NCBI GenBank assembly: GCA_943846785.1
Contig: OX044367.1
Span: 4,276-68,275 of the forward strand
Reading direction: 5' to 3'
Origin: an uncultured SAR86 cluster bacterium
GTDB lineage: Bacteria > Pseudomonadota > Gammaproteobacteria > Magnimaribacterales > D2472
DNA: 64,000 nucleotides
The notes under the pieces were generated by a model, which was not told the origin of the DNA, ran no database searches, and was given only the letters and a program-made list of their open reading frames with translations. This document shows, piece by piece, positions 10,776 through 64,000 of the stretch (positions are counted from its first letter, which is position 1; each line of letters begins with the position of its first letter). The position numbers were made by a program, and so were the translations under genes.

Positions 10776-10782
10776 ATATATG

Positions 10783-10931: not shown

Positions 10932-11005
10932 TGGAGGCTGAAGCCGGAATCGAACCGGCGTAAACGGCTTTGCAGGCCGCTGCATAACCACTCTGCCATC
11001 CAGCC
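10932..11005 (-). tRNA. tRNA-Cys (anticodon GCA), 74 nt including encoded CCA
   Basis: The reverse complement is GGCTGGATGGCAGAGTGGTTATGCAGCGGCCTGCAAAGCCGTTTACGCCGGTTCGATTCCGGCTTCAGCCTCCA. It has anticodon loop CTGCAAA, a GGTTCGATTCC T-arm and discriminator U, as expected for tRNA-Cys. Confidence 0.95.
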
Positions 11006-11056
11006 AATTAAGCATGATGTATTGTATACATCTATAAGGGAAAGTAAAAAGATAAA

Positions 11057-11812
11057 TTAATCTTTATCCAGTCTCTCAATATCACTTTCTATACAATCTT
11101 CACCATATTGAATTTCAATAATATGCTGTTTTCATTAGAAGGATTGCTTATTTGATGCCAATGTCCAACTGGAACAAGATAATGATCAAATTTATTAAGT
11201 TGTAACTCTTTTTATTCTTATTATAGGATCATTTGAATATGAGACATACACTGACCCTTCACTGACAAGCCAAATCTCATTTCTTTTAAAATGTCTTTGA
11301 AAACTCATCGCTTTACCGGGTCGACTATTAACTCTTTAACTTTAATTTCTTTGTTTCAAATAAATTAAAAAAAGACCCCCACTGCCTTTCTTCAAAATAA
11401 TATTGCCATTTTTTAAGAATCCATGATGATGAATTCTTTTTATCATCACCCCAACACTAAAAATAAAATTTATATCAGCAACAGACATTTCTGGTATATT
11501 TTTTTTATCTCTATCCCACCATTAGCAAAATAAATATCATCATTAGGATAAGTTTTTTAATTTCTTCTAATGCATTTATGCAAGACCCTTTCATCATCTT
11601 AAAACCAATAACTTCATCTACAAATTTTATTGATTCAACTATAGCTTTTCTTTCATCAAATGGCATAAAAAATTTACCTTTCTTTTTTTAAGCCAAGCAT
11701 CACTATTTAAAGCAACTATTAATTTATCTCCATGACTCTTTGCAGATTTAAAATAAGCAATATGGCCAGAATGAATTGGATCAAAACCCCCACTAACAAC
11801 TACTATTTTCAT
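11057..11812 (-). pseudogene. Cytidylyl/adenylyltransferase (HldE domain II / TagD-like) followed, apparently without a stop, by a mannose-6-phosphate-isomerase-type cupin; multiple apparent frameshifts
   Basis: From the ATG at 11812: MKIVVVSGGFDPIHSGHIAYFKSAKSHGDKLIVALNSDAWL (HxGH nucleotidyltransferase motif). Downstream fragments read ...ERQWGSFFNLFE...PGKAMSFQRHFKRNEIWLVSEGSVYV...GHWHQISNPSNEN (cupin motifs). The stop is at 11057-11059. Confidence 0.6.
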
Positions 11813-15545: not shown

Positions 15546-16212
15546 TTAATTTATAGAGTTGAATATATTTTTAAGGGCATTTTGGGGATCTGCAGCTTCT
15601 GTGATGGCCTTCCTATTACTAAATAATTAGCCCCAAGCTCAATAGCCTTTTGTGGTGTCATTACTCTGCTTTGATCATCATCAATCAGACAAGCGTATTC
15701 CTGGAGTAATAGAGAGGAGTGACTCTTTTTGTTTAACTAAATTTAATTCATGAGGAGAGCAAACCACCCCATCAATCCAGCTTGTATAGCAATTTCAAGC
15801 ATTGCATTTACCTGAGATGCTGCATCTCTCTGTATATTATATTTGTATCATCATCAGTCAGGCTTGTAAGAGCGGTAACACCAAATACTTTTATATCTGT
15901 TCCATTAACAGCTTCCATTGCAGCTTTCATCATCTGAAACCCACCTGAGGTATGAATTGTAAGCATATTAATTGGGAGAGCTTTTAGGCCTTCAATTGAT
16001 TTTTTTACTGTATTTGGGATGTCATGCAGCTTTAAGTCTAAAAAAATATCAAAGCCTTTGTTAGATGCATGCAAGATAGCCTCATGCCCAAGAGCATTAA
16101 AACTAACACTTCCAACTTTTACCATGCAAAGATCTGGATCAAGAGAATCTACAATATTTTTAAAAGCATCTAGATGATACTCATCAACAGCTACGATAAT
16201 ATTTTTAGACAT
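15546..16212 (-). pseudogene. pyrF: Orotidine 5'-phosphate decarboxylase, apparent frame breaks in the C-terminal third
   Basis: The 15808-16212 piece reads MSKNIIVAVD...VKVGSVSF...FLDLKLHDIPNTV (DxKxxD motif). C-terminal fragments end ...EAADPQNALKNIFNSIN, with the stop at 15546-15548, one base before the pgi ATG. Confidence 0.85.
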
Positions 16213-16236
16213 AATTGTTGAATTTTAAACTATTAG

Positions 16237-16532
16237 CTACTTATCTACTAATGATTTAGAAGGCTTGAAATGCATTGTAGCTGTCTCTCCAAGATAGGAG
16301 ACTTCTTTTGTTTTAGGGTTGATAAACTTTCCTAGGTCTGATATATTTTTTTGAAAAAGTACCAAACCCTCTAATTTCAACTTTATCATCGAATGCAACA
16401 GCATCAACAATAGACTCTAATATAGAATCTATTGCTAATGAAATTTGTGATTTAGTGAGGTGTGGAAATTGCTTTAGTTAAAGCTGATTCAATATCTGAA
16501 CGGTTATAAGTTTGTTGCTTATTACTACTCAC
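16237..16532 (-). pseudogene. ihfB: Integration host factor beta subunit-like (HU/IHF family), apparent frame breaks
   Basis: A GTG start at 16532 overlaps the rpsA stop. The by-eye reading is MSSNKQQTYNRSDIESALTK...LTKSQISLAIDSILESIVDAVAFDDKVEIRGFGTFS...MHFKPSKSLVDK. The position after rpsA matches the conserved rpsA-ihfB order. Confidence 0.7.
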
Positions 16533-17835
16533 TCAACTTTAATGAAATTCTTTCTCTTTCTGCATCAACTGCAAAAACTATACACTCTAATTTATCGCCT
16601 TTTTTGATATTCTTCTAATGCATCTTTTGGATCATCATCATCAGAAATATCAGAAAGGTGAATTAATCCATCGATATCACCCTCTAAGCCAACAAAGATT
16701 CCAAAATCTGTTATTGATTTAATATGCCCATCAACTTTATCGCCGATACCATATTTATTAGAGAATTCAGTCCATGGATTAGCTTTAGTTTGCTTAAGAC
16801 CTAGAGAAATTCTTCTTTTATCATGATCTATTTCAAGAATCATAACTTTAATCTTTTGCTCCATCTCTACAACTTTTGAAGGATGAATATTTTTGCTAGT
16901 CCAATCAAGCTCTGATAGATGAATAAGGCCTTCTATTCCTTCTTCTAATTGAGCAAAACAGCCGTAGTCAGTAATATTTGAAACTGAAGCCTCATAAACA
17001 CCACCAACAGCATAATTACTTTCAACATTTTCCCAAGGATCATTTTGAATTTGTTTTAGACCTAAAGAAACTCTAAGTTTTTCTTTATCAAAACTTAAAA
17101 TCTTAACATCAATCTCATCACCAAGACTAAGAATTCTGCTGGGTTAGTAACTCTTGACCAAGATATATCTGTATATGTGAAGTAAGCCATCAAGTCCACC
17201 TAGATCTACGAAAGCGCCGTAATCAGTGATGTTTTTAACAACACCTCTAACAATTTGACCTTCTTCTAAGATTTTTGAGAAGCTCAACTTTAACAGCTGA
17301 ATTATTTTTTTCAAGAACAGCTTTTCTTGAAAGAACAACATTATTTCTTTTGTAATCAAGTTTGATTACTTTGAATTCTTGTACTGTATTTTCAATGTCT
17401 GGTGCCTCTTTTACAGGTCTAACATCAACTAAGGATCCAGGTAAGAATGCTTTAACAACTTCTACCTCTACTGCGAAGCCACCTTTAACTCTGTTATGAA
17501 TTTTACCAGTAACAAACTCTCCAGTTTCTAGTGCTTCTTCAAGCATTTTCCAGGTTGATATTTTTCTTGCCTTTTCTCTTGAAATTCTTGTTTCTCCATA
17601 ACCGTCTTCAACGGCCTCTAGAGCAACTTCTACCTCATCTCCAACGACGATACTTACCTCGCCTTCATTATTTCTAAATTCATCAAGAGATACTACTCCT
17701 TCTGATTTTAATCCTACATGGACTGTTACCCAGTCATTATCTACGTCTAATACAACTCCAGATACTATTGATCCGGGTTGCATATCTAAGTGTGCTTAAA
17801 CTTTCATCTAGTAAAGCTGCAAATGATTCTGTCAT
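16525..17835 (-). pseudogene. rpsA: 30S ribosomal protein S1 (five S1 domains recognisable), multiple apparent frame breaks
   Basis: The ATG at 17835 (MTESFAALLDESL) overlaps the cmk stop (ATGA). Domains read by eye: MQPGSIVSGVV..., GEFVTGKIHNRVKGGFAVEV..., [35 protein letters not shown]..., VYEASVSNITDYGCFAQLEEGIEGLIHLSELDW..., and DKVDGHIKSITDFGIFVGLEGDIDGLIHLSDIS.... One break lies at the T5 run 17272-17276. Confidence 0.9.
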
Positions 17836-18482
17836 TTATTAAATTCCTTTTTTGTGAGCTTTTTAGTAAAACTCAGTACTTCGTCAAGAGACATTTATGA
17901 AGAATCAATTACTATCTGAATCTTCTGCAGGAATCAATGGGGATATGTTCTTGTTCTGTCCTTAAATCTCTCTCTTCAATGTCTGCAATCAGATCGGGCA
18001 TATTAACTTCTTGTCCACGATTCTGCAACTCTAAATATCTTCTTTTTGCTCTTACTTCTGCAGATGCTTCAAGAAATATTTTTAATCTTGCATCTGGAAA
18101 GACTACTGTTCCCATATCTCTTCCATCAGCAACCAAACCTCTTCCGAATAAAAGACTCTTTGAATATCTAGCAAATTTTTTCTAGTATTCTAGTGCCTTA
18201 TTTGAGCAAGCTGATTTTTGCTGTTTTTTCTGTTCTAGTTATGGTAATTTCTTCTGTATCTTTCAAAACATTTATACCATCTGATCAGAAATAAATGATA
18301 TTTGCTCGCTTATATTTTTTCCTATTTCTTCGTGATTACCACTTATGCTAAATAAATAAGCATAAACTCTGTAAAGCAAGACCGCTATCAAGAATATTAA
18401 AATCTAAATTCTTAGCTAATGTTCTTGATAAAGAGCCTTTCCCAGATGCAGAAGGACCATCGATCGTAATAATATTATCCAT
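17832..18482 (-). pseudogene. cmk: Cytidylate kinase, several frame breaks plus an in-frame TAA
   Basis: The ATG at 18482 gives MDNIITIDGPSASGKGSLSRTLAKNL (P-loop). The 17912-18136 piece reads [33 protein letters not shown]. The C-terminus reads IVIDSS-TAA-MSLDEVLSFTKKL. Confidence 0.85.
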
Positions 18483-18490
18483 TTCCATAT

Positions 18491-20648
18491 TTAACCTAAT
18501 TTATTCATGTTCTCAAAAAACTTGGGAATGAGGTAAATATATTTTTACAATTCTTAACAATAATATCCTTTTCAGACTCTAAGGCTTGCAATCAAAAAAC
18601 TCATTGCAATTCTATGATCATCCAAACGAATCATTTCAGGCTGTCACTGGAATATTTCTCTTACCCTTGAATTTTAATTCCATCTTCTACAATATCATGT
18701 TGACATTAAGTATTTGGAAACCAGCATGCAATTGCTGCTAGTCGATCTGACTCTTTTACTCGTAAGCTCTTCTGCATCCTTAATAGTAGTTTTCCCTCAG
18801 CAAATGAGGCAGCAATACTTAAAATTGGTATTTCATCGATAATATTAGGAATGATGTCGCCACCTATATCAATACCTTGTAAGTTTAGAAGATTTAACAG
18901 ATAAGTCTCCAACATCTTCATTACACTCAGTTGATTGATTCAATATTTCTATTTTGCTCCCATTGATTGAACACTTTAATTAATCCAGACCTTGTTGGAT
19001 TTAAGCCAACATTTTTATTAAGATTTCGATTCTTTTGCAATAAGGCCTGCAACTATTAAAAATGCAGCTGATGAAAAGTCTCCAACAACTTCATAGTGAT
19101 CTTTTGAGATAAGTTTTGTTGTGAAGAGTAATTCTTTACCCTCACCTTCTTTTGTATGACTCAATATTCCACCAAAATAATTAATCATTCTTTCTGTATG
19201 ATTTCTTGTTGGATGTTTTTCAATAACAGTAACTTTTTTATTTGCAGCTAAAGCAGCTAGAATTATTGAAGATTTAACTTGAGCACTTGCACTGGCATAT
19301 CATATAAAAATTATCCTTAATATCTTCCTTTTCTGGATTTTTAGGAGGAGTTCCTTCTGAGCATGTCAACTATTAGCTCCCATTTCATTTAGTGGATTAG
19401 CTACTCTTAGCATAGGTCTTTTAGATAAAGACTCATCGCCAACAAGGGTAGCTTCGAATATCTAAACTGGAAATTAAACCCATTAATAATCTTATTCCTG
19501 TTCCAGAGTTGCCTAAATCAATACTCGATTTAGGAGATAATGAATGGCTACATCCCTTTTAGAAATTATGCATTAGTTCCATTAATATTTATTGATGAGC
19601 CTATTTGATTTAAAGCCATTGCAGTAGATATTGGGATCTTCTCCATTAAGAAAGCCTTTAATGGAAATATCTTCATTAATAGAGAGCCTATAATCACAAT
19701 TCTCTGAGAGATTGATTTATCACCAGGACATAAACTTCACCTGATAGGTGCTGAGTTACTTTTTGCTAAAAGATTCAAAAGGCTATCTTCTTTATATTTT
19801 TTAATATCTTCTAACTCTTTCTTTAATAGATCTGAATGAGAAAATACCTCAGGAAGTTCTTTTGTCTTTGTCATTAACTCTAGAGGTTATTAATTGAAGC
19901 TGGAAACTTGCTAATGATTTAATAATATTTTTATCATTTAACTTCAAAAATATCTCTCCACATTTCTGGGTTAGAGCCACTAATCCTAATAAATTCTTTT
20001 AAGCCGCCCCCAACATTATCTTTAACATCTTTTGAGACAATCTAATAGAATCAATTAAGGCATATGAAATTAAATGAGGAAGATGGCTTGTCATGGCAAA
20101 CATCAAATCATGATCTTTTACAGACATCTCAGAAACTCTCATCTGTCAAACAAATTTCCAAAAATCTTCAAGCCTTTGGGTATGTTTTCTTTCAGCATTG
20201 AAAGGGTTGCATATTACTGTTTTCTTGCCAGTGAAAAAGTTTTCATCGCCCACTTGATATTCCTGATTTATCAGAACCAGCAATGGGATGAGATAAGAAC
20301 TATATTGGTAAATCTTTATACAATAGATGGTTCTTAACACTAGAGGTATCTGTAATAGTTGTCTGTGTATTCCAAAGCTGTTGAATGTATTAATTATATT
20401 CTTTGTAGCTTCTGGTGATACTGCTATAACTATAAGATCTATATAAGAGGTTAATTCTTTATTATTTATTGTCTTCTAATAGAATCAAAACTCTCATCAA
20501 TAATTTTATTATTCTATGCATATTGAAGACTTTTATCATCTATATCAAAACCATGAACTTTTATATCCTTTTTCTTTAGAAGCTTTTGCAATAGATGATC
20601 CAATTAAGCCTAGTCCAATGACTAGTATTTCTTTACATTAGTATTCAT
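18491..20648 (-). pseudogene. aroA: Prephenate dehydrogenase (TyrA) followed by 3-phosphoshikimate 1-carboxyvinyltransferase (AroA), possibly fused as in Pseudomonas; very many apparent frame breaks
   Basis: The ATG at 20648 gives MNTNVKK/ILVIGLGLIGSSIAKASKEKG (Rossmann), with a break at the T3 run 20628-20630. Further on come ...MTSHLPHLISYAL (TyrA), then VPGDKSISQRIVIIGSL, ...LGNSGTG..., and DDHRIAMSFLIASL (AroA). It ends ...TSFPSFFENMNKLG at 18491. Confidence 0.8.
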
Positions 20649-21741
20649 AAAACTGACCAAGTTTTAACAAGAAATAATCATTCTCATCTTTGGTGCCAAC
20701 TGTAACTCTTATAAATTCAGGCATATCATATAAGAGCAATTGGTCGAACAATAACACCTTCTTTCATAAGTTCTGTAAATAATTCTATCAGCTTAAAATT
20801 GCCTTTAAATGCAATGAAAGTTTCCATGAGAAGGAATGCATTCCAATCCCATTCATTAACTAGTCATTAAGATAGCTCTCTTTGCTTGAGATTTAATTCA
20901 ATGCTTTTATTGAATATGTTCATGTCAAGAATTGCTAGACATGCTGCATTCTTGAGCAATGAGCATTAGAATTAAAAGGTTGTCTTATTTTATTTAATAC
21001 TCTATTCATAATTTTTATTAGCCAAGCCATATCCAATTCTAAGACTTGCTAAACCTTGAATCTTTGAAAAAGTTTTTGTAACTAATAAATTTGATACTTA
21101 TCTAAGAAGTTCAGTTTATCTACATGTAATCTTTCTCGTAACATACTCAAAATATGCTAAATCTAAGAATGACAAGAACAGATGATGGAATGCTCTTCAT
21201 CATAGACATAAATCATTATGCGTATTGTATGTTCCTGTGGGATTATTTGGGTTGGCAATAAACAAACTCTTGTATGATCTTCATATAATCTTGGAAATTC
21301 ATTAAGAGCATGTGTCCAATTCTTGTTGGAACTTCAATAATCTTTGAGCCACTAGACTTGAGTCACTATCTTATATACAGCAAATGCATGCTTTGACATT
21401 AGGGCGCTTGTATCTTTATTTAAAAAAGCCCTTGCAGCTAACTCAAGAACTTCATTAGAGCCATTGCCTATAATTATATTTTCAGGATCAAGTACTCATG
21501 ATTTGCAATCAATGCTTTTAATTTCTTTGAATCTCCATCAGGATATAAGATGCAAATCATCATTATGAGTTTTTAATGCTTTTACAGCTTCTGGTGATGG
21601 ACCAAGTGGATTTTCATTGCTAGCAAGCTTAACAACTTTTTCTGGTTTATATTCTGCAACTACTTCATCAATTGACCTTCCGGGTTCATATGGGTGGAGG
21701 TCTGTAATACCTTTATTTAAATGTTCAAAGAGATTGCTCAT
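20638..21741 (-). pseudogene. hisC: Histidinol-phosphate aminotransferase, many apparent frame breaks
   Basis: The N-terminal piece 21538-21741 reads ...YEPGRSIDEVVAEYKPEKVVKLASNENPLGPSPEA. The C-terminal reading is ...VRVTVGTKDENDYFLLKLGQFYEY, with the stop at 20638-20640. The position between pheA and tyrA matches Pseudomonas synteny. Confidence 0.8.
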
Positions 21742-22825
21742 ATATGTTGAGGATACGAACCAAGAACTCTAACTAAAGATCCTGTTGACCTTACCTCTTT
21801 AATAGCTAACTTTAACTTATTATCAAACTGATGACCTTCGCAATCAACAAAGAAATCATGCGAATCAATATTTCCTCTTGATGGTCTGGTCTCAATTTTA
21901 CTTAGATTAATTTTTCTTTTTTCAAAAGGTCGTAATATGTTTATTAATGCTCCAGGATTGTTAACAGTTTGAATTAGGAAAGATGTCTTGTCTTTACCAG
22001 TGGACAATATTTCTTTTGACCAATAACTAAGAATCTTGTTTTATTTTCAGAATAATCTTGAATATTACTTTTTTGGAGTTTAAGTTTATATTTCTCTATA
22101 GCCAAAGAATTAACTATGCAGAGAATATTTTTATTTTCTTTTGCATACTTAGCTGCTACTGCTGAGCTTGGCATTTCTAACCTTTTAATAGATCCAATAT
22201 TTTTTTCAATCCATTTACTACATTGACCCAGAGCCTGAGGGTGAGAAGCAATTGCAAAAGCATCCTTAAGATCAAACTTATTTCCTGAGGCGAGTTGATG
22301 GTCAATATTTAAATATATTTCGCCAATAATAGAAATATTTTCATTATCAGCTAGGCAGTTTAATGTAGTATTAATTACTCCCTCAGATGAATTCTCAACT
22401 GGAACAACACCTATATCGGTATCTCCATTAATTACTTGATAGAAGACATCATCTATTGTTGGTGATGGAATTCGGGAAACTAATGAACCAAAATGATTAT
22501 CAACAGCAGCCTCAGAATGAGTTCCCTCTGGTCCTAAATATGATATTTTAAGTGCTTCTTCTAAGGATAAACAGCCTGAAATTAATTCTTTATAAATACT
22601 CCTTACTTTAGTATTTGATAAAGCGCCATTTTCATTTGCTTTTAATATATTTCTTAAGATATTGGCTTCTCGATCAGGCTTATAGAAAGATGTATTTGGA
22701 CTAATTTTTGATTTAATTTTTCCTATATCTACAGCCAATGAAGCTCTGCGTTGAATTAATTTTAATAAATCAGAATCTATCTTATCTATCTTAGATCTTA
22801 AATTTTTTAACTTATCTTTACTCAT
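21738..22825 (-). pseudogene. pheA: Bifunctional chorismate mutase / prephenate dehydratase (P-protein), single apparent frameshift
   Basis: 21974-22825 covers the CM and PDT domains; 21738-22007 covers the ACT domain (SFLIQTVNNPGALINILRPF). Adding one base to the T4 run 22014-22017 joins ...FLVIGQKEILSTGKDKTSFLIQ.... Confidence 0.9.
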
Positions 22826-51293: not shown

Positions 51294-51696
51294 AGTATTA
51301 ATAGTTCATACTTCTTGGTATGAGGATTACATAAAACAAATGATAAATACTTCTTCTGAAGTGCTGGCAGGTAAATTCAATCTTTCTTTTGCATGTGCAC
51401 CGGGTGCGATTGAGCTTGCTGCACTTGCAAAGCATAAAATCATGGACTGTGATGAGCAATTTGAAGGGGTTATGTTTCTTGGAATAGTTATCAGGGGCGG
51501 CACAACACATTATGAGCTTGTCACAAATGAAACATTCAGATCTATTGGTGATCTAGCTCTAGATTTTCCAAAAATAGCAATTATTAACAATGTTGTATGT
51601 GTTGAAAATAAAGAGCAATTATTAGAAAGACTGACTGTAAATACCAAAAATAATGCTGAAGCTTTAAAAAAATTAATAAATGAAAAATCTAGCTAA
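51286..51696 (+). CDS. ribH: 6,7-dimethyl-8-ribityllumazine synthase (short, divergent)
   Basis: 136 aa: ...APGAIELAALAK...FLGIVIRGGTTHYELV... matches the VPGAxE / GxVIRGxTxH pattern. The operon position between ribB and nusB supports the call. Confidence 0.8.
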   Translation: MNKVLIVHTSWYEDYIKQMINTSSEVLAGKFNLSFACAPGAIELAALAKHKIMDCDEQFEGVMFLGIVIRGGTTHYELVTNETFRSIGDLALDFPKIAIINNVVCVENKEQLLERLTVNTKNNAEALKKLINEKSS

Positions 51697-52090
51697 TCAT
51701 AAAATTGCAATAAGAAGTAGAGAATATCTAGTTCAAGCAATTTATCAATTATTTTTTAATGAGCAAGATATTGAAGATATCATTGATCAATTTAAGGATG
51801 AACATAAAACAAAAAAAGTAGATTTTCAGCTTTTCTCTTCATCACTTAAATCTATTCAGGCTAATAGAGCTCAACTAAAAGATATTTTAGATAATTTAGG
51901 AGTTAATGACCCTGATATGGACTTAATAGATAAGGCAATATTTTATTTTGCTCTAAATGAAATGACTTTTGGAGTTTTAGATAAGCCCATAGTAATTGAT
52001 GAGTCCATTAGGCTTGCAAAAAAGTTTTCAAGTCCAGATTCTTATAAGTTTATAAATGCCAACCTTGATAAGGTTATAAATACTAAATGA
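51680..52090 (+). CDS. nusB: Transcription antitermination factor NusB
   Basis: 136 aa: REYLVQAIYQLFFN...DLIDKAIFYFALNEM...INESIRLAKKFSS...FINANLDK. Confidence 0.9.
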   Translation: MKNLANHKIAIRSREYLVQAIYQLFFNEQDIEDIIDQFKDEHKTKKVDFQLFSSSLKSIQANRAQLKDILDNLGVNDPDMDLIDKAIFYFALNEMTFGVLDKPIVIDESIRLAKKFSSPDSYKFINANLDKVINTK

Positions 52091-53317
<1,227 letters not shown>

Positions 53318-53322
53318 CTATT

Positions 53323-54192
53323 TTAATTAGATAGTTCTTTTTGGTTTAGGTATTTCAAGAATTCAGAATTAGCATCTATTAGCATAACATCGCCTTTATT
53401 TTCAAAAGTTTCAACATAAGCTTTTATGCTTCTAGTAAATTCATAAAATTCTGGATTTTGTGAAAACCCTTCAGCATATATTCTTGCTGCTTCAGCATCA
53501 CCTTCACCTCTTAATAACTCGGATTTTTTGTATGCTTCTGCAAGAATAACAACCTTATCTTTATCAGCAACAGCTCTTATTTCTCTAGAGATTTCTTTAC
53601 CTTCAGATCTTAGCTCTTCAGCAAGTCTGTTTCTTTCTGTTCTCATTCTTTCATAAACAGAGTTACTTAGATTAGATGGAAGATCAATTCTTTTAACCCT
53701 AAAGTCAATTATCTCAACCCCAAGATCTGCAACAGAATCATTTAAAGAATTCAGCATAATATTCATTAGCTCATCTCTTTCACCTGATACAACTTCTTTT
53801 ACAGTTCTTTTACCAAAATTATTTTTTAAAACAAATTCGGATCTTTGGCCAAGCAAACTATTCAAGCTATTAAAACTTCCATTATTTGCCTTATAGAAAG
53901 TTAAAACATCAGCAATTTTATATTTAATAAATGAATCTACTAAAAGATATTTACTCTCAACAGTAAGGATTCTATCTGGTTCCTCATCAAGTGTTTGTAT
54001 TCTGCTGTCATATTTTTTTACTTCCTGAATAACAGGAACTTTAAAATGAAAACCTACATCAATATCTGTTCTAACTGCTTCACCGAATTGAAAAACAATA
54101 GCTTCCTCTTTCTCATTAACAATAAAAAAGCTGTTCAATAAAAAGCCAACAATAAGTGCCGCAAAAACTGTTATAAAAGTACTTTTATTCAT
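53323..54192 (-). CDS. hflC: Protease modulator HflC
   Basis: SPFH/band-7 protein with an N-terminal TM. The likely start is the Met at 54192 (MNKSTFITVFAAL), overlapping the hflK end by 8 nt. Confidence 0.9.
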   Translation of the reverse strand: MNKSTFITVFAALIVGFLLNSFFIVNEKEEAIVFQFGEAVRTDIDVGFHFKVPVIQEVKKYDSRIQTLDEEPDRILTVESKYLLVDSFIKYKIADVLTFYKANNGSFNSLNSLLGQRSEFVLKNNFGKRTVKEVVSGERDELMNIMLNSLNDSVADLGVEIIDFRVKRIDLPSNLSNSVYERMRTERNRLAEELRSEGKEISREIRAVADKDKVVILAEAYKKSELLRGEGDAEAARIYAEGFSQNPEFYEFTRSIKAYVETFENKGDVMLIDANSEFLKYLNQKELSN

Positions 54193-55255
54193 TGTTATCT
54201 CCCTTTCTGTTAAGAATGTCATTTAAAGATGATGAACTTGAAGAATTTTGCATCATCTTATCTAGAGGCAACAACATGAGGTTGTTTCCGTTATCTACAT
54301 CAATCATAACTTTAGTTGTATTAGACAATACAGACTGCATTGCATCAATATACATTCTATCTCTAGTTACTTTTGGTGCTTTTTCATACTCCTCAAGTAA
54401 TTGGGTAAACCTTCCGACCTCACCTTCAGCATTAGCTATTACTTCGAGTAAATAACCTTCAGCATTTCGAATTCTAGCCTGCGCCTGACCTCGAGCCTCT
54501 GGAACTATCGTTAAAGCATATCTTTCTGCTTCATTTTGAAGTCTTTCTTTATCTTCCCTGGCTGCAACAACATCATCAAAAGCATCTTTAACCGCTGCTG
54601 GAGGATCTGTTTTTTCAATATTTACCTGTTGAACGATTAGACCTGTAGCATAGATATCAAGAATCTGCTGAAGTCTGCCTTGCACTTCCTGAGCAATGTT
54701 TTCTCTTCCAACTGTTAAAGTTTCTTCAAGAGTATTGTCACCAACAACGTGTCTTAATGCGCTTTCGATTCCTTGTCTTAAACTACCCTCAGGATCCTTA
54801 ACATTCAATACAAAGTCTTTAAGGTTTGCAATTCTGTACTGTGCTGAGACTGTTACATCAACAATGTTTTCATCTTTGGTTAACATACTGTTAGTTTGTG
54901 TATATCTTCTTGTAAGTGAAACGTTTTCAATGTAGCGCTCGTCTATCCCTGCTAATCTAAAATTTAGTCCTTCTTGTTGCTCTTCATAGAACTTACCAAA
55001 CCTCAGAATAACTGCTCTTTCAGAAGCATCTAACTGATAGATAGATTGAGATGCATAAATTATTAAGAAAGCAAAAAAACCATATAGAAATATTCTGGTT
55101 GTTGGAATTTTCATTCCTCCACCACTTCCAGAGCCTTTATTAGATGATGAGTCCTTTCCACCCAAAAATGTAGAAAACTTTTTAATTAGATCATCAAAGT
55201 CAGGAGCGTCATTTTTACCACCCCATGGATCTTTATCTTGGTTATCCCAGTTCAC
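54185..55255 (-). CDS. hflK: Protease modulator HflK
   Basis: 356 aa: MNWDNQDKDPWGG..., a Gly/Ser-rich linker, a TM segment and an SPFH domain (...RFGKFYEEQQEGLNF...). Confidence 0.92.
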   Translation of the reverse strand: MNWDNQDKDPWGGKNDAPDFDDLIKKFSTFLGGKDSSSNKGSGSGGGMKIPTTRIFLYGFFAFLIIYASQSIYQLDASERAVILRFGKFYEEQQEGLNFRLAGIDERYIENVSLTRRYTQTNSMLTKDENIVDVTVSAQYRIANLKDFVLNVKDPEGSLRQGIESALRHVVGDNTLEETLTVGRENIAQEVQGRLQQILDIYATGLIVQQVNIEKTDPPAAVKDAFDDVVAAREDKERLQNEAERYALTIVPEARGQAQARIRNAEGYLLEVIANAEGEVGRFTQLLEEYEKAPKVTRDRMYIDAMQSVLSNTTKVMIDVDNGNNLMLLPLDKMMQNSSSSSSLNDILNRKGDNNE

Positions 55256-55315
55256 AATAAATTACCTCATAGTTTTTCTGTATTATAAACCTAATCTATG
55301 GCCTTTAATTGATAT

Positions 55316-56248
55316 TTAAAGAGAAGATACTAAAGTTTCTACCTCTTCTTTAATTTTTTCTTTTGTATTGATATTAAATTTTTTAAGATTTTGCCATGAC
55401 CTTAACCAAGTCATTTGTCTTTTTGCTAACTGCCTTGTTGCAAATAGTGCTCTATTAAAGAACTCCTCATCATCATATTCATTATTAATCCTCGCAATAG
55501 CCTGTTTGTAGTTAACAGATTTTCTTATAGGGTGTTGCTCTGGAATATGATATTCCTTTAATAAATAATCTACTTCATCAAGTAGGCCTGCTGTAATAAT
55601 TTTTTGAAGTCTGCTTTCAATTCTGCTATGAAGTAATGATCGATCTTCTTCAAATATTCCGTATTGATAAATATTAAAGCGGTTGCTTAAGTTTATCTTA
55701 TTATTTAATCCTATTTGAGCACTCAGAGGTTTCCCAGAAATTTCTATCACCTCAAGAGCCCTAATTATTCTTTGCTCATCAAGCTCATTAATTTGTTTTG
55801 CATAAACTTCATCTTTTTCAAAGAGCATAGAATGCAATTCTTTTATGCCTTTTTTTACTTTTATGTTTTCATATTTTTGTCTAATTAAATCATCTCTTGC
55901 TGGTAAATTGTCCAATCCATCTAGCAAGGATTTGAAATACATCATTGTACCTCCGACAAATACAGGAGTTTTATTTCTATTATGAATTGAGTCTATTAGA
56001 CTTATAGAGTTTTTATAAAAATCTGAAACCGTGAATATTGAATTAGGCTCGATATGATCTACAAGATGATGAGGGTATTTTTCCAGTATATCTTTGCTTG
56101 GTTTTGCAGACCCAATGTCGCATCCAGAATAGACCATAACAGAATCAACACTAATTATTTCTATTGATGATGAATCAAATATATCTAAAGCTAAATCAGT
56201 TTTACCTGAAGCTGTTGGTCCAAGAATGAAAATAATTGATTTTTTGAT
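55316..56248 (-). CDS. miaA: tRNA dimethylallyltransferase; start codon unresolved (no in-frame ATG/GTG/TTG upstream of the P-loop)
   Basis: The track ORF (from 56137) begins after the P-loop. The same frame continues upstream as SSIKKSIIFILGPTASGKTDLALDIFDSSSIEIISVDSVMVYSGCDIGSAKP. Only ATA, ATC and ATT codons are available as starts between 56263 and 56234. Confidence 0.85.
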   Translation of the reverse strand: MKKSIIFILGPTASGKTDLALDIFDSSSIEIISVDSVMVYSGCDIGSAKPSKDILEKYPHHLVDHIEPNSIFTVSDFYKNSISLIDSIHNRNKTPVFVGGTMMYFKSLLDGLDNLPARDDLIRQKYENIKVKKGIKELHSMLFEKDEVYAKQINELDEQRIIRALEVIEISGKPLSAQIGLNNKINLSNRFNIYQYGIFEEDRSLLHSRIESRLQKIITAGLLDEVDYLLKEYHIPEQHPIRKSVNYKQAIARINNEYDDEEFFNRALFATRQLAKRQMTWLRSWQNLKKFNINTKEKIKEEVETLVSSL

Positions 56249-56259
56249 ACTACTAAATC

Positions 56260-57845
<1,586 letters not shown>

Positions 57846-57891
57846 TTCTTAATCATGCATATTTATAATGTAATAATACAGTTTAAAACAC

Positions 57892-58764
57892 ATGAATAGA
57901 ATTTTATTAAAGCTTCTTATAAGTTTCTGGAAGGTAGTACTGCTTTTTCCTAGAGCTGTTCATAAAAAACTTGGCCTAATCCTTGGTTACCTTTTTTATA
58001 AATCTAATTTAAAAAGGAATAAGTTTAGTAAAAAAAATATTGATTTATGCCTTAAGAGGCTAGATAAGGAGAAAAAAGAAAAAGTCTATAAATCAAATAT
58101 TTTATTATCAGGAACCATACCATTTGATACTGGCGTGGCTTGGTTTTGGTCTGATAAAAGAATTAATAAGCGAATAAGTTATAAGATAAGTGGCTTGGAA
58201 AAGTTAATAGAGGAACAAAATAATAACAATGGAGTTCTTCTTTTCTTTAAGCATTCTCTCCATCTAGAGCTAGATGCAAGACTTTTAGGTATGAATGCTG
58301 ATGTGTATGGGGTAGAGAGAGTACATAATTCAAATTCATTTGATTCTATTCAAAATTCAGGAAGATTGAAAAGCCTAAAGGGCGCATGCGATAGAAATAA
58401 TCCATTAAAATTTATACGCTGGCTAAAAAAAGGAAAAACAGTTTTATATGCTACAGATCAAGACTATGGCATGGGTCAATCCGATATCATTGACTTTTTT
58501 GGAAATCCTGCTGCAACAATTTCTGCACCTTTGAAAATTATAAAAAGTACGTTATGCAAAACATATTTTTTAAACAGCTTTATTGAAAATGATAAATATA
58601 TATTGGAAATTGAAGAAATAAATTGTGATAGTTCATCTGAAATAAATTTCTCAACGGATTTAAATAACTATATGGCTGATAAAATTCAAGCTCATCCACA
58701 TGAATACTTGTGGCAGCATAGACGATTTAAATCCACACTTGGTAAAGATAAATTTTATGGATGA
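57892..58764 (+). CDS. lpxL: Lipid A biosynthesis (Kdo)2-lipid IVA acyltransferase (LpxL/HtrB family)
   Basis: 290 aa of the LpxL/LpxM/LpxP family: ...GVLLFFKHSLHLELDA (HX4D/E-type region)...YATDQDYG...HPHEYLWQHRRFK. Confidence 0.85.
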   Translation: MNRILLKLLISFWKVVLLFPRAVHKKLGLILGYLFYKSNLKRNKFSKKNIDLCLKRLDKEKKEKVYKSNILLSGTIPFDTGVAWFWSDKRINKRISYKISGLEKLIEEQNNNNGVLLFFKHSLHLELDARLLGMNADVYGVERVHNSNSFDSIQNSGRLKSLKGACDRNNPLKFIRWLKKGKTVLYATDQDYGMGQSDIIDFFGNPAATISAPLKIIKSTLCKTYFLNSFIENDKYILEIEEINCDSSSEINFSTDLNNYMADKIQAHPHEYLWQHRRFKSTLGKDKFYG

Positions 58765-59371
58765 TTTATTAAAGAAATTTGATTCTATCAAAGGATTTCT
58801 TGCTCATGAGGAAGGAGTGTTTTTATATCAATTAACTAAAGAATTTTGTCTTAAGAATTGTGCGGTTGAGATAGGTTCTTATTGTGGTAAATCTGCGTGT
58901 TATATAGGCCTAGCATGTAAAGAAAATCAAACAATACTGCATACTATTGATCATCATAGAGGTTCAGAAGAGCAGCAACTTGGTGAGGAATATTTTGACC
59001 CCGAAGAGTACGATTATATAAAAAAAAGAGTTGATACCTTGCCTACTTTGAAAAGAAATATAGAGATTAATGGCTTAAGTAAATCTATTTATGCTGTTGT
59101 CGGTCATTCAAAACAAATAGCAAATGACATGCAAAATAATATAGATTTAGTATTCATCGATGGGAGTCATACTTTTGAATCGGCAAGAACTGATTATTCA
59201 TCTTGGAAAGATAAGATAAGAATTGGTGGTATATTAGCCATTCATGATGTCTATGACAGTGAATTAGAAGGCGGTCAAGCACCAAGAGAAATATATGAAA
59301 AAGCCCTTTCTGAAAATTTTATTTTAATTAAAAGGGTTAATAGCTTGGTCGCCCTGCAAAAGATTGTTTAA
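58757..59371 (+). CDS. Class I SAM-dependent methyltransferase (Methyltransf_24 / TylF-like type)
   Basis: The ATG at 58757 overlaps the lpxL stop (ATGGATGA). ...AVEIGSYCGKSACYIG...DLVFIDGSHTFESARTDYSSW...GGILAIHDV. Confidence 0.75.
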   Translation: MDDLLKKFDSIKGFLAHEEGVFLYQLTKEFCLKNCAVEIGSYCGKSACYIGLACKENQTILHTIDHHRGSEEQQLGEEYFDPEEYDYIKKRVDTLPTLKRNIEINGLSKSIYAVVGHSKQIANDMQNNIDLVFIDGSHTFESARTDYSSWKDKIRIGGILAIHDVYDSELEGGQAPREIYEKALSENFILIKRVNSLVALQKIV

Positions 59372-60325
59372 ATAAAAAAACACATTGCCTTTACTGGTTT
59401 CTTTTTTATTAAATGTAAATAAAGCATGTGCAGCAATGATTACGGCAGCATTGGTCCATGTTGAATTCTCTTCTGGCCAAAAAATATCCATTTTATATTG
59501 ATAGCCTGTTGGAAAAATCCCGTTATCATTTTTGAACTGAAGTATATTGTTAAAAATTTTTTTTGCGGTCTCTATATCGCCCAAGACTAGTAAGGCAATA
59601 ATGCACTCGCAGCTTTCTGCAATAGTAACCCAAGGCTCTTCTTTAACACATTTAACCCCAAGTCCTTCCACATAAAAATCTTTAAGAGAATTATGAAATA
59701 CATTTTTATTATTCTTCACGCCACACATATATGGATAATAAAAATCCATGGAAAATCTTGAGCGATCAATTCCATCTCTATTAAACTTAGAGCTCCAAAG
59801 CTTTTGATCAAATTTTATTTTTGAAGAATTGTTAAGAGCTTTTAAAGAAAGAAAAATTGACATTGACGCTGTAATTAATGAATTATCACATAAGCCATTT
59901 TTGTCCCTAGCCCAGTTATAGTAACCATCTGTATCCCTAAATCTATCAAGTTGATCAAAAATAATCTTTATTTTTGATTTTATATCAGATGTTATAAGGT
60001 CACCTCTCCCCATTAATACAGCTTGCATCAAGGGAAGAATGATATATGGAGCATGATGACTTTCGAAATGATTGTGAGTAATTTTATTATTTTGAAATTC
60101 AGGATAAATAAGACCATCTTGACTTAAAGTATTAAAAAACCAATCTACTCCTTTAATAAAGGGATCCCATTCCTCAAATAATGCAAGAGCAATTAAGCAT
60201 TCACAATGATCCCATGGATCACATTTACCTTTTTCATCCCATGTAATTCTGCCATCATCTTTTTGATTATAAATAATCCAATCTTTTGATTCTTTAAAAG
60301 CTTTTCTTGACTCATTCCACTTCAT
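59324..60325 (-). CDS. Alpha/alpha-toroid protein with prenyltransferase/squalene-cyclase-type (QW-like) repeats; function unknown
   Basis: Intact 333 aa with four QW-like repeats: KDWIIYNQKDDGRITW, VDWFFNTLSQDGLIYPEF, IFDQLDRFRDTDGYYNW and IFNNILQFKNDNGIFPTGY. There are paired helices with CEC motifs (WDHCECLIALAL; AESCECIIALLVL). The 3' end overlaps the convergent methyltransferase by 48 nt. Confidence 0.5.
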   Translation of the reverse strand: MKWNESRKAFKESKDWIIYNQKDDGRITWDEKGKCDPWDHCECLIALALFEEWDPFIKGVDWFFNTLSQDGLIYPEFQNNKITHNHFESHHAPYIILPLMQAVLMGRGDLITSDIKSKIKIIFDQLDRFRDTDGYYNWARDKNGLCDNSLITASMSIFLSLKALNNSSKIKFDQKLWSSKFNRDGIDRSRFSMDFYYPYMCGVKNNKNVFHNSLKDFYVEGLGVKCVKEEPWVTIAESCECIIALLVLGDIETAKKIFNNILQFKNDNGIFPTGYQYKMDIFWPEENSTWTNAAVIIAAHALFTFNKKETSKGNVFFYLNNLLQGDQAINPFN

Positions 60326-61026
60326 TTTTTTACAAAATAAAAAGCAATACTTTTACCCAGGATTGGATTTAAGACTTTATCGATAAGATCTAAGAAAAAA
60401 GGTTTTTTTAAAATATGTCTTTCCAAAATTTTCTTGTAGATTTTTATTATGAGATTTGTGTCTTGAGTTTTCCAAAATAAACATCTTAACCACCAATATG
60501 CACTATGAATTGAATGAAACCTTTGAGAAGATTCATAATCAAAACCACAATCTGTAATATCTTTTATTAAATTATTTTTATTAAAAATTCTTAAATGTCC
60601 GCCAGGCTGATTCTGATATTCTTGAGATAAATACCAGCATATTTTTTCAGGTAACTCTGCAGGGACACTTGCTAAAAATTGCCCTCCTGGTTTAAGAACT
60701 CTATGTATTTCAATCACTGCATCTTTATATTCATGTAAATGCTCAAGAACCTCAGAACAAACAACCATATCAAAAGAGTTGTCATTGAATGGAAGAGAAT
60801 ATGCTGAACCACTTAAAAAATTTGTTTTGGTGTTGGAGATTGATTCAAGAAATTCAAGCCCCTCTGATGCTTTATCTAGAGATTCAAGATGAGGATCTAG
60901 GCCAATGCACTTTAAGTCTGGAAATTGTTCCATTGCACCAAAAATATGCCTTCCTTCTCCACACCCCAAATCAAGCATAATGCCTTTAGGATTAATATTA
61001 ATTTTATTAAAATTAAAAGTTAGCAT
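60322..61026 (-). CDS. Class I SAM-dependent methyltransferase (Methyltransf_11/25 type)
   Basis: 234 aa: IMLDLGCGEGRH (motif I)...FDMVVCSEVLEHL...LKPGGQFLASVP. Overlaps the downstream toroid gene by 4 nt. Confidence 0.8.
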   Translation of the reverse strand: MLTFNFNKININPKGIMLDLGCGEGRHIFGAMEQFPDLKCIGLDPHLESLDKASEGLEFLESISNTKTNFLSGSAYSLPFNDNSFDMVVCSEVLEHLHEYKDAVIEIHRVLKPGGQFLASVPAELPEKICWYLSQEYQNQPGGHLRIFNKNNLIKDITDCGFDYESSQRFHSIHSAYWWLRCLFWKTQDTNLIIKIYKKILERHILKKPFFLDLIDKVLNPILGKSIAFYFVKK

Positions 61027-61039
61027 TTGTTATGTTCAT

Positions 61040-62276
61040 CTATTGCTTTATAAATACTTCTTCATATTCATCAGTTATCTTAAGCCAATTAAAATTTTTA
61101 ATTATATGATCTCTGCCCTTGTTTGAAATGCTTTTGTATTTATCATAATTGTTAATTATTAATTTTATTGAATTAGCTAAAGAAGTCGAATCTTTTGGTG
61201 GAATAAGGGTTGCATAATTCGCCAACAAGCTCTGGGATAGATGAGGTATTAGCTGCAATTAAAGGTGTACTGCACACTCATTGCTTCAATAACAGGATAT
61301 CCAAAGCCTTCATATAAAGAGCTTACGATTGCAACTGAACTCTTTGCATACTCCTCAGCAATTTCTTTTTTTGTAAGATTAGTTTTAAAACTATAGACGT
61401 CACCGAGATTCCTAGCTTTTCAATAAGTCTAGAAGTATGCCCATCTTCTCTTTAATTTTCCAATAACTGTGAGGTTCATATCCTTTGAAATTCATTTTTT
61501 AGAATAGACAAGGCCGTCTAATGTATAGTCAAGCCCTTTTAGGGGAACGTCTGCACTTGCAGTTGTAATTAACTCTAAGTGGATCTCTTGTAATATCTTC
61601 ATATGGAACAAAAATATTAACATCTAGACCATTATGTATCACAGTGATATTGCTTTCATCGCATCTAAAGTCTTTAGCTATATCCTGTGAAGAGTTAGAG
61701 GATGGAGTTATAATATTTTTTATCTTTGGTGCAACTCTTTTTTGCATCTTCAAAAATGAGTACCATCTATGTCTTGACAGTCTATATAGAATTTTTTTAT
61801 TTGCCTGCGAGATCATGCTTATAATCTTTTGTTATCGGGTGGTGGATAATCTCAATGAAAGGAAATATTTTTTGGATCTCAAGCATTCCATAACTTAATG
61901 GATTGATTGTCTATAACAGCATCATATTTCGAGTATTTTGAATTAGATAGTCTGTGGCTCCTATGCCCAAAGGTTTTCATCTCTGGAAATCCCCCCAGTA
62001 AAACTGAACTAGAACTCATAGATATCTAGAGATATTTTTATTCTTTTTATTTCCTAAAAATTTTTACTCTTTCTTTAAATGAAAAAGTCTGAAAAAGATC
62101 TAAGACCTGGAAGTTTTATTAAATTTACACTTCATTGGAGACGTTTGGATATGGAGGTCCTGAAATAATATCTACCTTCATGACCCCTGATTCAGTTAAT
62201 GCTTTTGATATGTCATGGACATATACGCCCTGACCACCTCCAAACGGAGCGCTTCTGTAACTTAGTATTGCAATAT
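61040..62276 (-). pseudogene. Glycosyltransferase family 4 (GT-B, group 1), multiple apparent frame breaks; start codon unclear
   Basis: N-terminus read by eye: (I)KLNIAILSYRSAPFGGGQGVYVHDISKALTESG. Middle: ...ITVIHNGLDVNIF.P.... C-terminal: SLYEGFGYPVIEAMS..TPLIAANTSSIPELVG / NYATLIPPKDSTSLANSIKLII. Confidence 0.75.
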
Positions 62277-62304
62277 TGAGTTTAATTTCGAAAGCAAGTT
62301 ATTT

Positions 62305-63246
62305 CTAGGATGAGTCTAGGCTTAACCAGCGACTCATAATTTGTATTCTTTCCAAATATTATATCGTTATATGTTTTTTGTAGCTTCTCAGTTATTGGAC
62401 CTCTTGATCCCGTTCCGATTGATAGTCTTGCTATCAATTTTGGAAATAGGAGTTATCTCTACTGCAGTTCCCGTAAAGAATGCTTCATCAGCTCTGAAGT
62501 AAGCTCATCCAGTAGTTATATCTTTCTCAACTAACTTCATATCCCAGATCTTTCGATATTTCAATTACAGATTTTCGTGTAATCCCATTCAAGACAGTGA
62601 GTTATTGTCAAGGGCGTAGATATTTTATTCCATCTTTAATTAATAAAGATATTCTCTCCACTTCCCTCAGATATATAGCCATCCTTATCTAAGAAAGATA
62701 GCTTCATCAGCTCCCTTTTGAATTGCCTCATGCAGTGCCATTGTTGAATTTATATAGGTGCCTATTATCTTATATCCGGAGTGCAATGGGTTGCTGTACT
62801 GATCATATGAGGATTTAATTACTGATATGCCTGATTCTTTTGCCTCTGGACTCATATAAGATGGCCACTCCCACGCGGCAACAGCAACATTTACTGATAA
62901 TTCTGTTGCTCTTATTCCAAGCGATTCACTACCCAAGAAAACGATTGGTCTAAGATATCCCTCATCAAGATTATTTTTTATAAAAATATCCTTTCTGAAC
63001 TTGATTAAGTTCATCAGGTGAATACGGTATTTTAATTCCTAATTTACTTGCGGCTTCAAAAAGTCTATCTGTATGATCTTGAAGCCTAAATATTGCTGGT
63101 CCATGTTCAGTTTTATATGCTCTAACACCCTCGAAAACTCCAGTACCATAGTGCATGGTATGAGATAATAAGTGAACGGAAGCCTCCTCCCATTTTTCAT
63201 AAGTACCATTTTTCCAAATAACTTTTTCTTCGGTGTTTGCAAACAT
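62305..63246 (-). pseudogene. ilvE: Branched-chain amino acid aminotransferase, multiple apparent frame breaks
   Basis: 62971-63246 reads MFANTEEKVIWKNGTYEKWEEASVHLLSHTMHYGTGVFEGVRAY. 62685-63014 reads ...YLRPIVFLGSESLGI.... C-terminal fragments read ...IGTGSRGPITEKLQKTYNDIIFGKN.... Confidence 0.88.
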
Positions 63247-63311
63247 TTTATTAAGGATATAATTAGCGCTTTATTATGACAAACAAGAGCTAATAACAAA
63301 AGAGAAATAAT

Positions 63312-64000
63312 ATGAATATAGCATCATCAATTTTTAGAGAAAATGATATACGTGGCACTTATCCAGAACAAATAAATGAATCAACAATTAAATTAATTGC
63401 ATCATGCCATTGCAAGAAAATGTAAAAAACATGGAGTCAACTCTATAGCTGTTGGAAGGGATGGACGTCTTTCAGGGCCAGTGCTGCTTGAATCATTTTG
63501 TGAAGGTCTTCTTGAAGCTGGTATAGATGTAAATAATATTGGTTTAGTAACAAGTCCACTTGCTATATTTTGCAGCAAAAAAAGAATCATCAAAAAGTGG
63601 AATTATGATAACAGGAAGTCACAATCCTAAAAATCATAATGGTATCAAAATGGTGGTTGATGACAAACCAGTATCAGGAACAGAAATATTTGAATTACTA
63701 GGTGACTTAGAAGAAATAAATGAAAAAGGTACTATTGAATATACTGACATTAAAAAACTATATCTTGATGAAGTGTCAGAAAATATCTCTGTTGAAAATC
63801 CAGAAAAGTTAAAAGTAATTCTTGATTGTGGCAATGGAGCAGCTGGATGTATTGCACCCGATCTTTTCAAAAAAATTGGATTCTCAGTTATAGAACTTTA
63901 CAGTGAGGTAGATGGAAATTTTCCAAATCATCATCCGGATCCTGGCAAGCTAGAGAATCTTGAAGACCTTATAACTGAAGTGAATAAACAAAATGCTGAT
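63312..64000 (+). pseudogene. Phosphomannomutase/phosphoglucomutase (AlgC/ManB-like), 5' part with two apparent frame breaks; continues past the window end
   Basis: MNIASSIFRENDIRGTYPEQINESTIKLIA / ...AIARKCKKHGVNSIAVGRDGRLSGPVLLESFCEGLLEAGIDVNNIGLVTSP / GIMITGSHNPKNHNGIKMV (active-site Ser loop TGSHNP)...LDCGNGAAG.... Confidence 0.85.

Follow-up and report, generated by a model that had tools for sequence, protein, structure and literature searches.

The question raised by this locus is what a group of four genes, placed next to the lipid A genes waaA and lpxL in an uncultured SAR86 cluster bacterium, serves to make. The stretch analysed, hereafter the window, is the whole 64,000 nucleotides taken from contig OX044367.1 (assembly GCA_943846785.1), and the group encodes two methyltransferases, a protein of 333 residues and a glycosyltransferase of family GT4. 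The earlier note on this DNA had proposed that these genes build or decorate a methylated glycolipid or a substituent of the lipopolysaccharide (LPS) core by an undescribed route. A coherent cassette for a methylated glycan was indeed found, but its route was recognised as a known one, the methylmannose polysaccharide (MMP) pathway of mycobacteria (PMC9883506). At a probability of about 0.7, the cassette is the counterpart in SAR86 of the four-gene MMP cluster of nontuberculous mycobacteria, which comprises meT1, mmpH, pmeT3 and manT in Mycobacterium hassiacum and M. smegmatis (PMC9883506). This reading was based on the homology of all four genes, on the catalytic residues and on a gene order and orientation kept across phyla.

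Homology of the four enzymes to the mycobacterial cluster

The 333-residue protein (59,324–60,325, minus strand) gave no match at E ≤ 0.1 when scanned against Pfam and NCBIfam, prenyltransferase and cyclase families included, and it was identified only by sequence search of the PDB. With phmmer, a single strong match was obtained, PDB 7qsj, with an E value of 4.6e-36 over residues 18–303. This structure is the MMP hydrolase MmpH of M. hassiacum, the endo-alpha-(1→4)-mannosidase of the MMP pathway (PMC9883506). The AlphaFold2 model of the protein, built with 26 homologues, reached a predicted local distance difference test score (pLDDT) of 91.9 and a predicted template modelling score (pTM) of 0.93, and a Foldseek search of the PDB with this model ranked 7qsj first (E = 2.4e-21, TM score 0.82), followed by other (alpha/alpha)6 enzymes at 5e-7; the same entry led both the sequence and the structure rankings by at least 14 orders of magnitude. 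In MmpH, Asp47/Asp50 were described as candidate catalytic acid and Glu262 as catalytic base, with Trp49, Glu265, Trp315, Thr163, Met215 and Tyr219 among the subsite residues (PMC9883506). In the window protein, D36/D39 aligned with the former pair and E237 with the base, and the six subsite residues were all conserved, as W38, E240, W290, T152, M193 and Y197, respectively. The 333-residue protein is a homologue of MmpH and belongs to this family of (alpha/alpha)6-barrel glycoside hydrolases. Membership of a characterised glycoside hydrolase family had been set by the earlier note against its own proposal, and it was obtained here by sequence search and by the AlphaFold model with Foldseek.

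The Methyltransf_24 protein, an S-adenosylmethionine (SAM)-dependent methyltransferase of 204 residues (58,757–59,371, plus strand; Pfam PF13578, E = 4.7e-23), matched only PDB 6g7d/6g80/6h40 at E ≤ 0.01, with an E value of 8.5e-42 over residues 3–187 (185 residues). Entry 6g7d was deposited as 'Methyltransferase domain protein', and we take the three entries to be M. hassiacum MeT1, the 1-O-methyltransferase of the MMP pathway. The window protein was assigned by its sequence as a MeT1 homologue, and its gene is convergent to mmpH, as in the Mycobacterium loci. The second methyltransferase, a class I SAM-dependent Methyltransf_11 protein of 234 residues (60,322–61,026, minus strand; Pfam PF08241, E = 1.2e-22), aligned along its whole length, at 36% identity (E = 8e-59), with the product of the M. 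parascrofulaceum gene that lies between manT and mmpH, and generic class I methyltransferases of the PDB matched its N-terminal Rossmann part only, with E values of 3e-14 or above. It was classed as a homologue of pMeT3, the putative MMP 3-O-methyltransferase. The GT4 gene (61,040–62,289, minus strand; frame broken, start codon uncertain) was placed by frameshift-aware alignment to its orthologue in the relative L001, and this intact orthologue matched PDB 7qsg over its full length with an E value of 2e-72, the next GT4 following at 2.6e-17. Entry 7qsg was deposited as 'D-inositol 3-phosphate glycosyltransferase' and was taken as M. hassiacum ManT, since its residues fit the numbering of PMC9883506. 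The functional residues described for ManT are a Gly-rich loop (Gly15), His142, Lys240, Glu313 and Glu321, with Asp293 as a proposed guanine contact (PMC9883506). The loop and the four residues that follow it all aligned with identical residues in the L001 orthologue, and the window, after frame correction, encodes the motifs GGGQG (the loop), HHPIT, ASADVPLKG and EGFGYPVIE. By way of the intact orthologue, the GT4 of the window was identified as a ManT homologue.

The order and orientation manT→pmeT3→mmpH←meT1 were common to the window, its SAR86 relatives and seven Mycobacterium loci, and the MmpH of the Mycobacterium locus L044 is a true orthologue of 7qsj (E = 1.6e-190). On the minus strand, the overlap of 4 nucleotides between the mmpH-like and Methyltransf_11 open reading frames (ORFs) and the gap of 13 nucleotides (61,027–61,039) between the latter and the last GT4 fragment, with its stop at 61,040, were confirmed from the ORFs and the sequence. 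The co-directional run of GT4, Methyltransf_11 and 333-residue genes described earlier thus held in position and spacing, but its GT4 is not an open frame, some 16–18 frame breaks having gone unnoticed. The convergent meT1-like and mmpH-like 3' ends share 48 nucleotides (59,324–59,371), an overlap that is kept in the relatives L001–L005 and leaves no room for an intergenic terminator. A promoter and terminator scan of 57.5–63.4 kb returned fewer promoter-like sites than shuffled sequences and no useful terminator.

Distribution of the cassette and the lipopolysaccharide question

Relatives of MmpH were sought in one genome per GTDB species; at least 597 genomes contained one, and the best 80 were fetched as loci. 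A whole-library HMMER search returned 558 clusters at 50% identity with an MmpH relative among their members. Architectures were counted by tblastn with the four proteins on these 80 species-representative loci, the denominators being the loci where each feature was observable. The run GT4→Methyltransf_11→MmpH was present in 64 of the 71 loci with an observable upstream side, a convergent and adjacent Methyltransf_24 gene in 45 of 73, and the full four-gene set in 47 of 65; the trio of glycosyltransferase, methyltransferase and toroid singled out in the earlier note does recur as a cassette across genomes. The carriers among the 80 loci included SAR86 and SAR86-like Gammaproteobacteria, Halieaceae, Cellvibrionales, Spongiibacteraceae, Microbulbifer, Pseudomaricurvus and Zhongshania, as well as Desulfobacterota (including Smithella and Syntrophaceae), one Dehalococcoidia metagenome-assembled genome (MAG) and Actinomycetota (including Mycobacterium, Dietzia, Embleya, Nocardiopsis and Blastococcus). 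In the relatives L001–L004, at 74% identity, all four genes were intact and the synteny was the same, running through pgm, ilvE, manT, meT3, mmpH, meT1, lpxL, waaA, glnB, miaA, hflKC and purA. The guanine-plus-cytosine fraction of 58–62 kb was 0.31–0.32, like the remainder of the window, and recent horizontal acquisition of the cassette was rejected, there being no compositional sign of a recent island.

When the SAR86-type loci L001, L006, L007, L010, L027 and L028 were compared, ManT and MeT3 of the window clade were 65–68% identical to those of L027 and L028, with MmpH and MeT1 at just 31–32% and 46–47%, respectively, and against L007 the pattern was reversed, with ManT/MeT3 at 34% and MmpH and MeT1 at 45% and 64%; these mosaic identities suggest that an mmpH and meT1 module was exchanged between SAR86 lineages. 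A hexapeptide-repeat acyltransferase of about 240 residues was found directly after mmpH or meT1 in 18 fetched loci from Desulfobacterota and some Gammaproteobacteria (L012, L021, L033, L035, L036, L038, L040, L050, L053, L058, L065, L067, L074–L076, L080, L083 and L085). It was present in every Desulfobacterota locus in which MmpH alone was detected and ManT/MeT3 were not, and a B12-binding radical SAM enzyme came next in 8 Desulfobacterota loci. The acyltransferase-bearing loci may represent a variant cluster for an acylated polymer, to be compared with the acetylated MMP of Streptomyces griseus. Lastly, it is an impression only that many of the carriers among L006–L085 bear names associated with the breakdown of hydrocarbons or lipids (Zhongshania aliphaticivorans, Pseudomaricurvus hydrocarbonicus, Smithella/Syntrophaceae, Dietzia, Mycobacterium and SAR86).

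The neighbourhood of the cassette was what had led the earlier note towards Kdo2-lipid A and the LPS core. In the window, waaA, which encodes the Kdo (3-deoxy-D-manno-oct-2-ulosonic acid) transferase (56,595–57,845, minus strand; Pfam Glycos_transf_N, E = 8.5e-54; NF004388, E = 4.1e-100), is divergent from the pair formed by meT1 and lpxL, the late lipid A acyltransferase gene (57,892–58,764, plus strand; Pfam Lip_A_acyltrans, E = 3.4e-43; TIGR02207, E = 1.5e-60). The ATG of the meT1-like gene at 58,757 overlaps the lpxL stop by 8 nucleotides within ATGGATGA, as had been claimed, and the two genes are translationally coupled. Among the fetched loci, lpxL was found beside meT1 only in those of the SAR86 type, and waaA lay at most 6 kb from the cluster in SAR86-type loci and in nine loci of Halieaceae, Spongiibacteraceae or other Gammaproteobacteria. 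The Halieaceae-type cluster sits between dTDP (thymidine diphosphate)-rhamnose genes and hldE, waaA or the gene of a TolC-like outer-membrane protein (L017, L045, L073 and ten others), with rmlA upstream in 13 Halieaceae-type loci and rmlD, rmlB and rmlC confirmed in L017. In the SAR86 loci L013, L014 and L018, too, hldE comes after meT1. Only SAR86 and Halieaceae-type loci had such envelope-gene neighbours. The cluster was flanked by glnA, OmpW, pyk (pyruvate kinase), a regulator, Dus and MoeA in Microbulbifer, Pseudomaricurvus and another Pseudomonadales genome.

It is unlikely that the methylated mannan becomes part of LPS, as core or O-chain, in the Gammaproteobacteria. The coupling of meT1 to lpxL next to waaA in SAR86 loci, the position of the Halieaceae-type cluster between rmlBDAC-type genes and hldE, waaA or tolC, the hldE of the three SAR86 loci and the 3-O-methylmannose homopolymer that forms the O-chain of Oligotropha carboxidovorans (cited in PMC9883506) all fit this explanation, but the conserved MeT1-type enzyme would cap the free reducing end, so that the chain could not be attached through it. 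In addition, a cytoplasmic endo-hydrolase would have no role in LPS assembly, and no flippase, ATP-binding cassette (ABC) exporter, ligase or polyprenyl-phosphate transferase was found among the annotated neighbours inspected. Actinomycetota and the Dehalococcoidia MAG, from groups that, to our knowledge, make no LPS, carry these four genes with order and orientation unchanged, and in Microbulbifer, Pseudomaricurvus and the other Pseudomonadales genome their flanks are not envelope genes. Across the fetched loci, the cassette was neither confined to LPS makers nor steadily associated with LPS genes. Given these carriers and the unrelated flanks in other Gammaproteobacteria, the adjacency to waaA and lpxL is lineage-specific synteny and not evidence for an LPS substituent, although those lineages may co-regulate the cassette with the synthesis of envelope lipids. 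The link to Kdo2-lipid A or the LPS core was therefore found not to be general, and the LPS interpretation is to be dropped, the finding being largely explained by the known MMP pathway.

The broken glycosyltransferase frame and the remaining alternatives

No single open reading frame encodes the GT4 in the window; its pieces are spread over all three minus-strand frames. In a frameshift-aware protein-to-DNA alignment with the intact L001 orthologue of 417 residues, 417 of 417 residues were covered at 73% identity, a value comparable to those of the intact neighbours (74–77%), and about 16–18 frame corrections were needed, nearly all of them for insertions of +1/+2 and none in homopolymers; no in-frame stop was found in the frame corrected on this orthologue. 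Residue 1 aligned at about 62,289 and not at 62,276, and the start codon cannot be fixed. Directly upstream of manT, the branched-chain aminotransferase gene ilvE (62,308–63,246, minus strand), aligned with frameshifts to the L001 ilvE (87% identity; the latter matched NF005146 with E = 2.1e-115), carries 10 insertions of the same kind. The neighbouring gene of the phosphoglucomutase/phosphomannomutase (PGM/PMM) family (63,312–64,000, plus strand, cut by the window end) was found split over three frames by tblastn with the L001 pgm.

Damage of this sort was not confined to the cassette. Three patches of the window contained almost no ORF of 100 residues or more (about 9,700–11,800, 16,200–22,000 and 61,000–64,000), with frameshifted fragments of cmk, aroA, hisC and pheA in 17.9–22 kb and of manT, ilvE and pgm in 61–64 kb, and the lesions were scattered insertions of 1–2 nucleotides outside homopolymers. 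The Rfam scan of the window returned only two tRNAs (10,786–10,869 and 10,935–11,005, minus strand), so the ORF-poor stretches are damaged coding sequence and not rRNA. An hldE-like fragment was also seen at 11,678–11,809, inside one damaged patch. The patches suggest unpolished or strain-mixed segments of the assembly. The only near-identical public contig, L005 (ENA ERZ10646689, scaffold_8257), was compared over 51,300–64,000 of the window and showed 99.5% identity up to about 61 kb; past that point, mismatches of up to 18% and many indels were found. Both contigs are fragmented over the same genes (pgm, ilvE, GT4, Methyltransf_11 and mmpH), and in L005 the damage extends into meT3 and mmpH (274 residues). 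The broken GT4 frame is most likely a sequence-quality artefact of poorly polished, strain-variable sequence, given the insertion-only lesions, the lack of stops, the neighbour-like identity and the same damage in ilvE, pgm, aroA, hisC, pheA and cmk; the loss of cmk, aroA, hisC and pheA together is not possible for a free-living cell.

That the cluster of this strain is decaying, with manT a pseudogene and the cassette a non-functional remnant, is a very improbable explanation, even with a GT4 frame broken about 16–18 times and a 99.5%-identical contig that is fragmented across the same genes. The lesions are almost all small insertions, the corrected frame retains an identity to its orthologue like that of the intact neighbours, and all genes are intact in relatives at 74–83% identity. 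Furthermore, the divergence between the window and L005 reaches 18% with many indels only in this patch, which is not expected from relaxed selection between strains otherwise 99.5% identical. A GT4 pseudogene as the main explanation was rejected on the insertion-only pattern and on the same damage in essential genes.

A catabolic cassette, which would recover or alter methylated mannans that the cell imports from seawater, has very little probability: MmpH is a hydrolase and SAR86 genomes encode many glycosidases (PMC11582366), but the other three genes, for a glycosyltransferase and two methyltransferases, are anabolic, the gene set is identical to that of the biosynthetic mycobacterial cluster, no signal peptide was evident by eye, and the cluster contains no transporter or TonB receptor.

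That the 333-residue protein is a QW-repeat toroid of the prenyltransferase or terpene-cyclase kind, acting on polyprenyl or hopanoid lipids, can be dismissed as having next to no chance, because its best match in both sequence and structure is the hydrolase MmpH, with catalytic acid and base conserved, the Pfam prenyltransferase and cyclase families were unmatched, the DxDD motif is absent as read from the sequence, and squalene-hopene cyclases appeared only at Foldseek ranks 42 and 47 (E about 1e-5, TM score 0.33–0.53). The four QW-like repeats of the earlier note were found to be loose DG-x-aromatic hairpin motifs at residues 24, 70, 133 and 268 (shuffle P about 0.04), the strict QW core (Q-x2-5-G-x-W) being absent in a motif search of this protein; its fold class, an alpha/alpha toroid, had been read correctly, but the prenyl- or lipid-binding family was wrong.

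The expected product and comparison with known systems

By analogy with the mycobacterial pathway, the ManT-like GT4 would use a nucleotide sugar, probably GDP (guanosine diphosphate)-mannose, to lengthen short alpha-(1→4)-oligomannosides, and the pMeT3-like methyltransferase would O-methylate the added mannoses. The MmpH-like hydrolase would then cut mature chains internally, giving oligomers that prime new chains, and the MeT1-like enzyme would cap the free reducing end with a 1-O-methyl group. Together, these steps would let a small polymethylated mannan of the cytoplasm replicate by priming itself, in a partly conservative manner. Which sugar is used, how it is linked, where it is methylated, which donor supplies it and what the product does in the cell are all inferred. 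The adjacent PGM/PMM-family gene could supply mannose-1-phosphate, but it may be a housekeeping gene; its L001 counterpart scored 429 bits against the PgmG-type PGM/PMM model, under the cut-off of 600. No obvious N-terminal signal peptide was noticed in the three intact proteins on inspection by eye, and a cytoplasmic product is for this reason expected: a small, soluble, polymethylated oligomannoside with a blocked reducing end, and not an LPS-linked glycan. Its likely role is the binding of long acyl chains (fatty acids or acyl-CoA), a suggestion drawn from the mycobacterial literature, in which MMP was proposed to sequester acyl-CoA (PMC9883506), and from a SAR86 metabolism centred on beta-oxidation (PMC11582366).

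Several points weigh against identifying the cassette with the MMP cluster. No chemical evidence for MMP in any Gram-negative bacterium was found in the searchable literature, and pMeT3 is called merely 'putative' even in mycobacteria. Asp293 of ManT, the proposed guanine contact, aligns with a Lys in the SAR86 orthologue, which leaves GDP-mannose unconfirmed as the donor. In MmpH, the subsite residues Asn101/Phe102 are replaced by His90/His91 in the window protein, so that the substrate may differ in detail; the two histidines were invariant in the clade of the window (alignment A2), and the majority of sequences in the wider alignment A1 had them as well, which hints at a somewhat different substrate contact from that of the mycobacterial enzyme. 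The clade of the window is also the most divergent, at 28–38% identity to the mycobacterial proteins, compared with about 47% in all four for Halieaceae. Finally, the GT4 frame is broken both in the window and in L005, the only near-identical contig, so that this strain may, with a small probability, have lost the function, and the MMP reading does not account for the repeated siting by waaA, hldE and rml genes in SAR86 and Halieaceae.

The pathway itself is known, and its spread beyond Actinobacteria into Gram-negative bacteria of the ocean is apparently unreported. The literature search, outside of which many subscription papers lay, returned no paper linking MMP or polymethylated polysaccharides with SAR86 or Gammaproteobacteria and no mention of MMP or of its cluster outside Actinobacteria, and PMC9883506 never mentions Proteobacteria. 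So far, MMP has been regarded as peculiar to mycobacteria and a small number of other actinobacteria, and most work on it has concerned the lipid metabolism of mycobacteria and their adaptation to cold. If the cluster functions in the same way here, one of the bacterial groups most abundant in the surface ocean, together with many other Gram-negative degraders of lipids or hydrocarbons, would carry an unrecognised cytoplasmic lipid-binding polysaccharide. A wider proposal, possible but doubtful at present, is that polymethylated mannose polysaccharides are not restricted to actinobacteria and that MMP-like carriers of acyl chains are made in the cytoplasm of SAR86, Halieaceae, Cellvibrionales, Spongiibacteraceae, Desulfobacterota that degrade alkanes and fatty acids (Smithella/Syntrophaceae) and some Dehalococcoidia, carriers which in SAR86 and Halieaceae would be genetically tied to lipid A and core assembly through the lpxL–meT1 operon and the neighbouring waaA and hldE. 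This would suggest that beta-oxidation and the late acylation of lipid A both draw on acyl chains buffered by the polymer, and such cells would be a possible source of the O-methylated hexoses of marine dissolved organic matter. Names were inferred for four genes, including mmpH, whose type of enzyme has no Pfam or NCBIfam model, and the cultured Gram-negative carriers of the full cluster, among them Microbulbifer agarilyticus S89 (L083), Pseudomaricurvus hydrocarbonicus JCM 30134 (L038) and Seongchinamella sediminis U0301 (L063), allow the prediction to be tested directly.

Among known systems, the O8/O9a polymannan O-antigens of Escherichia coli also combine GT4-type mannosyltransferases with SAM-dependent methylation of mannose, in a control by terminal methylation exerted by WbdD. 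There, the chain is undecaprenyl-linked, is capped by methylation at its non-reducing end and is exported through an ABC transporter, and we know of no hydrolase or reducing-end methyltransferase in that system; the window, in turn, has no such carrier or exporter genes. Members of clan GH-L, such as the GH15 glucodextranase and the GH125 exo-alpha-1,6-mannosidase, have in common with MmpH the (alpha/alpha)6-barrel fold and an inverting-type arrangement of acid and base (PMC9883506), but sequence similarity is not detectable, and enzymes of the MmpH type cut alpha-(1→4)-methylmannosides internally. Streptomyces griseus makes an acetylated MMP (mentioned in PMC9883506), from which it follows that the pathway exists outside mycobacteria and can bear extra decorations, whereas the window cluster is without an acyltransferase. 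The closest counterpart is the MMP cluster of nontuberculous mycobacteria. It differs from that of the window in the host, here a Gram-negative, low-GC, streamlined marine gammaproteobacterium, in proteins that are 28–38% identical, in the Asn101/Phe102 of MmpH, which are His/His in the window, and in the operon-like arrangement of the window meT1 with lpxL and its 48-nucleotide convergent 3' overlap. All four protein families and the order and orientation manT→pmeT3→mmpH←meT1 are nevertheless the same in both, the catalytic residues of MmpH and the signature residues of ManT are conserved, and the proteins appear cytoplasmic.

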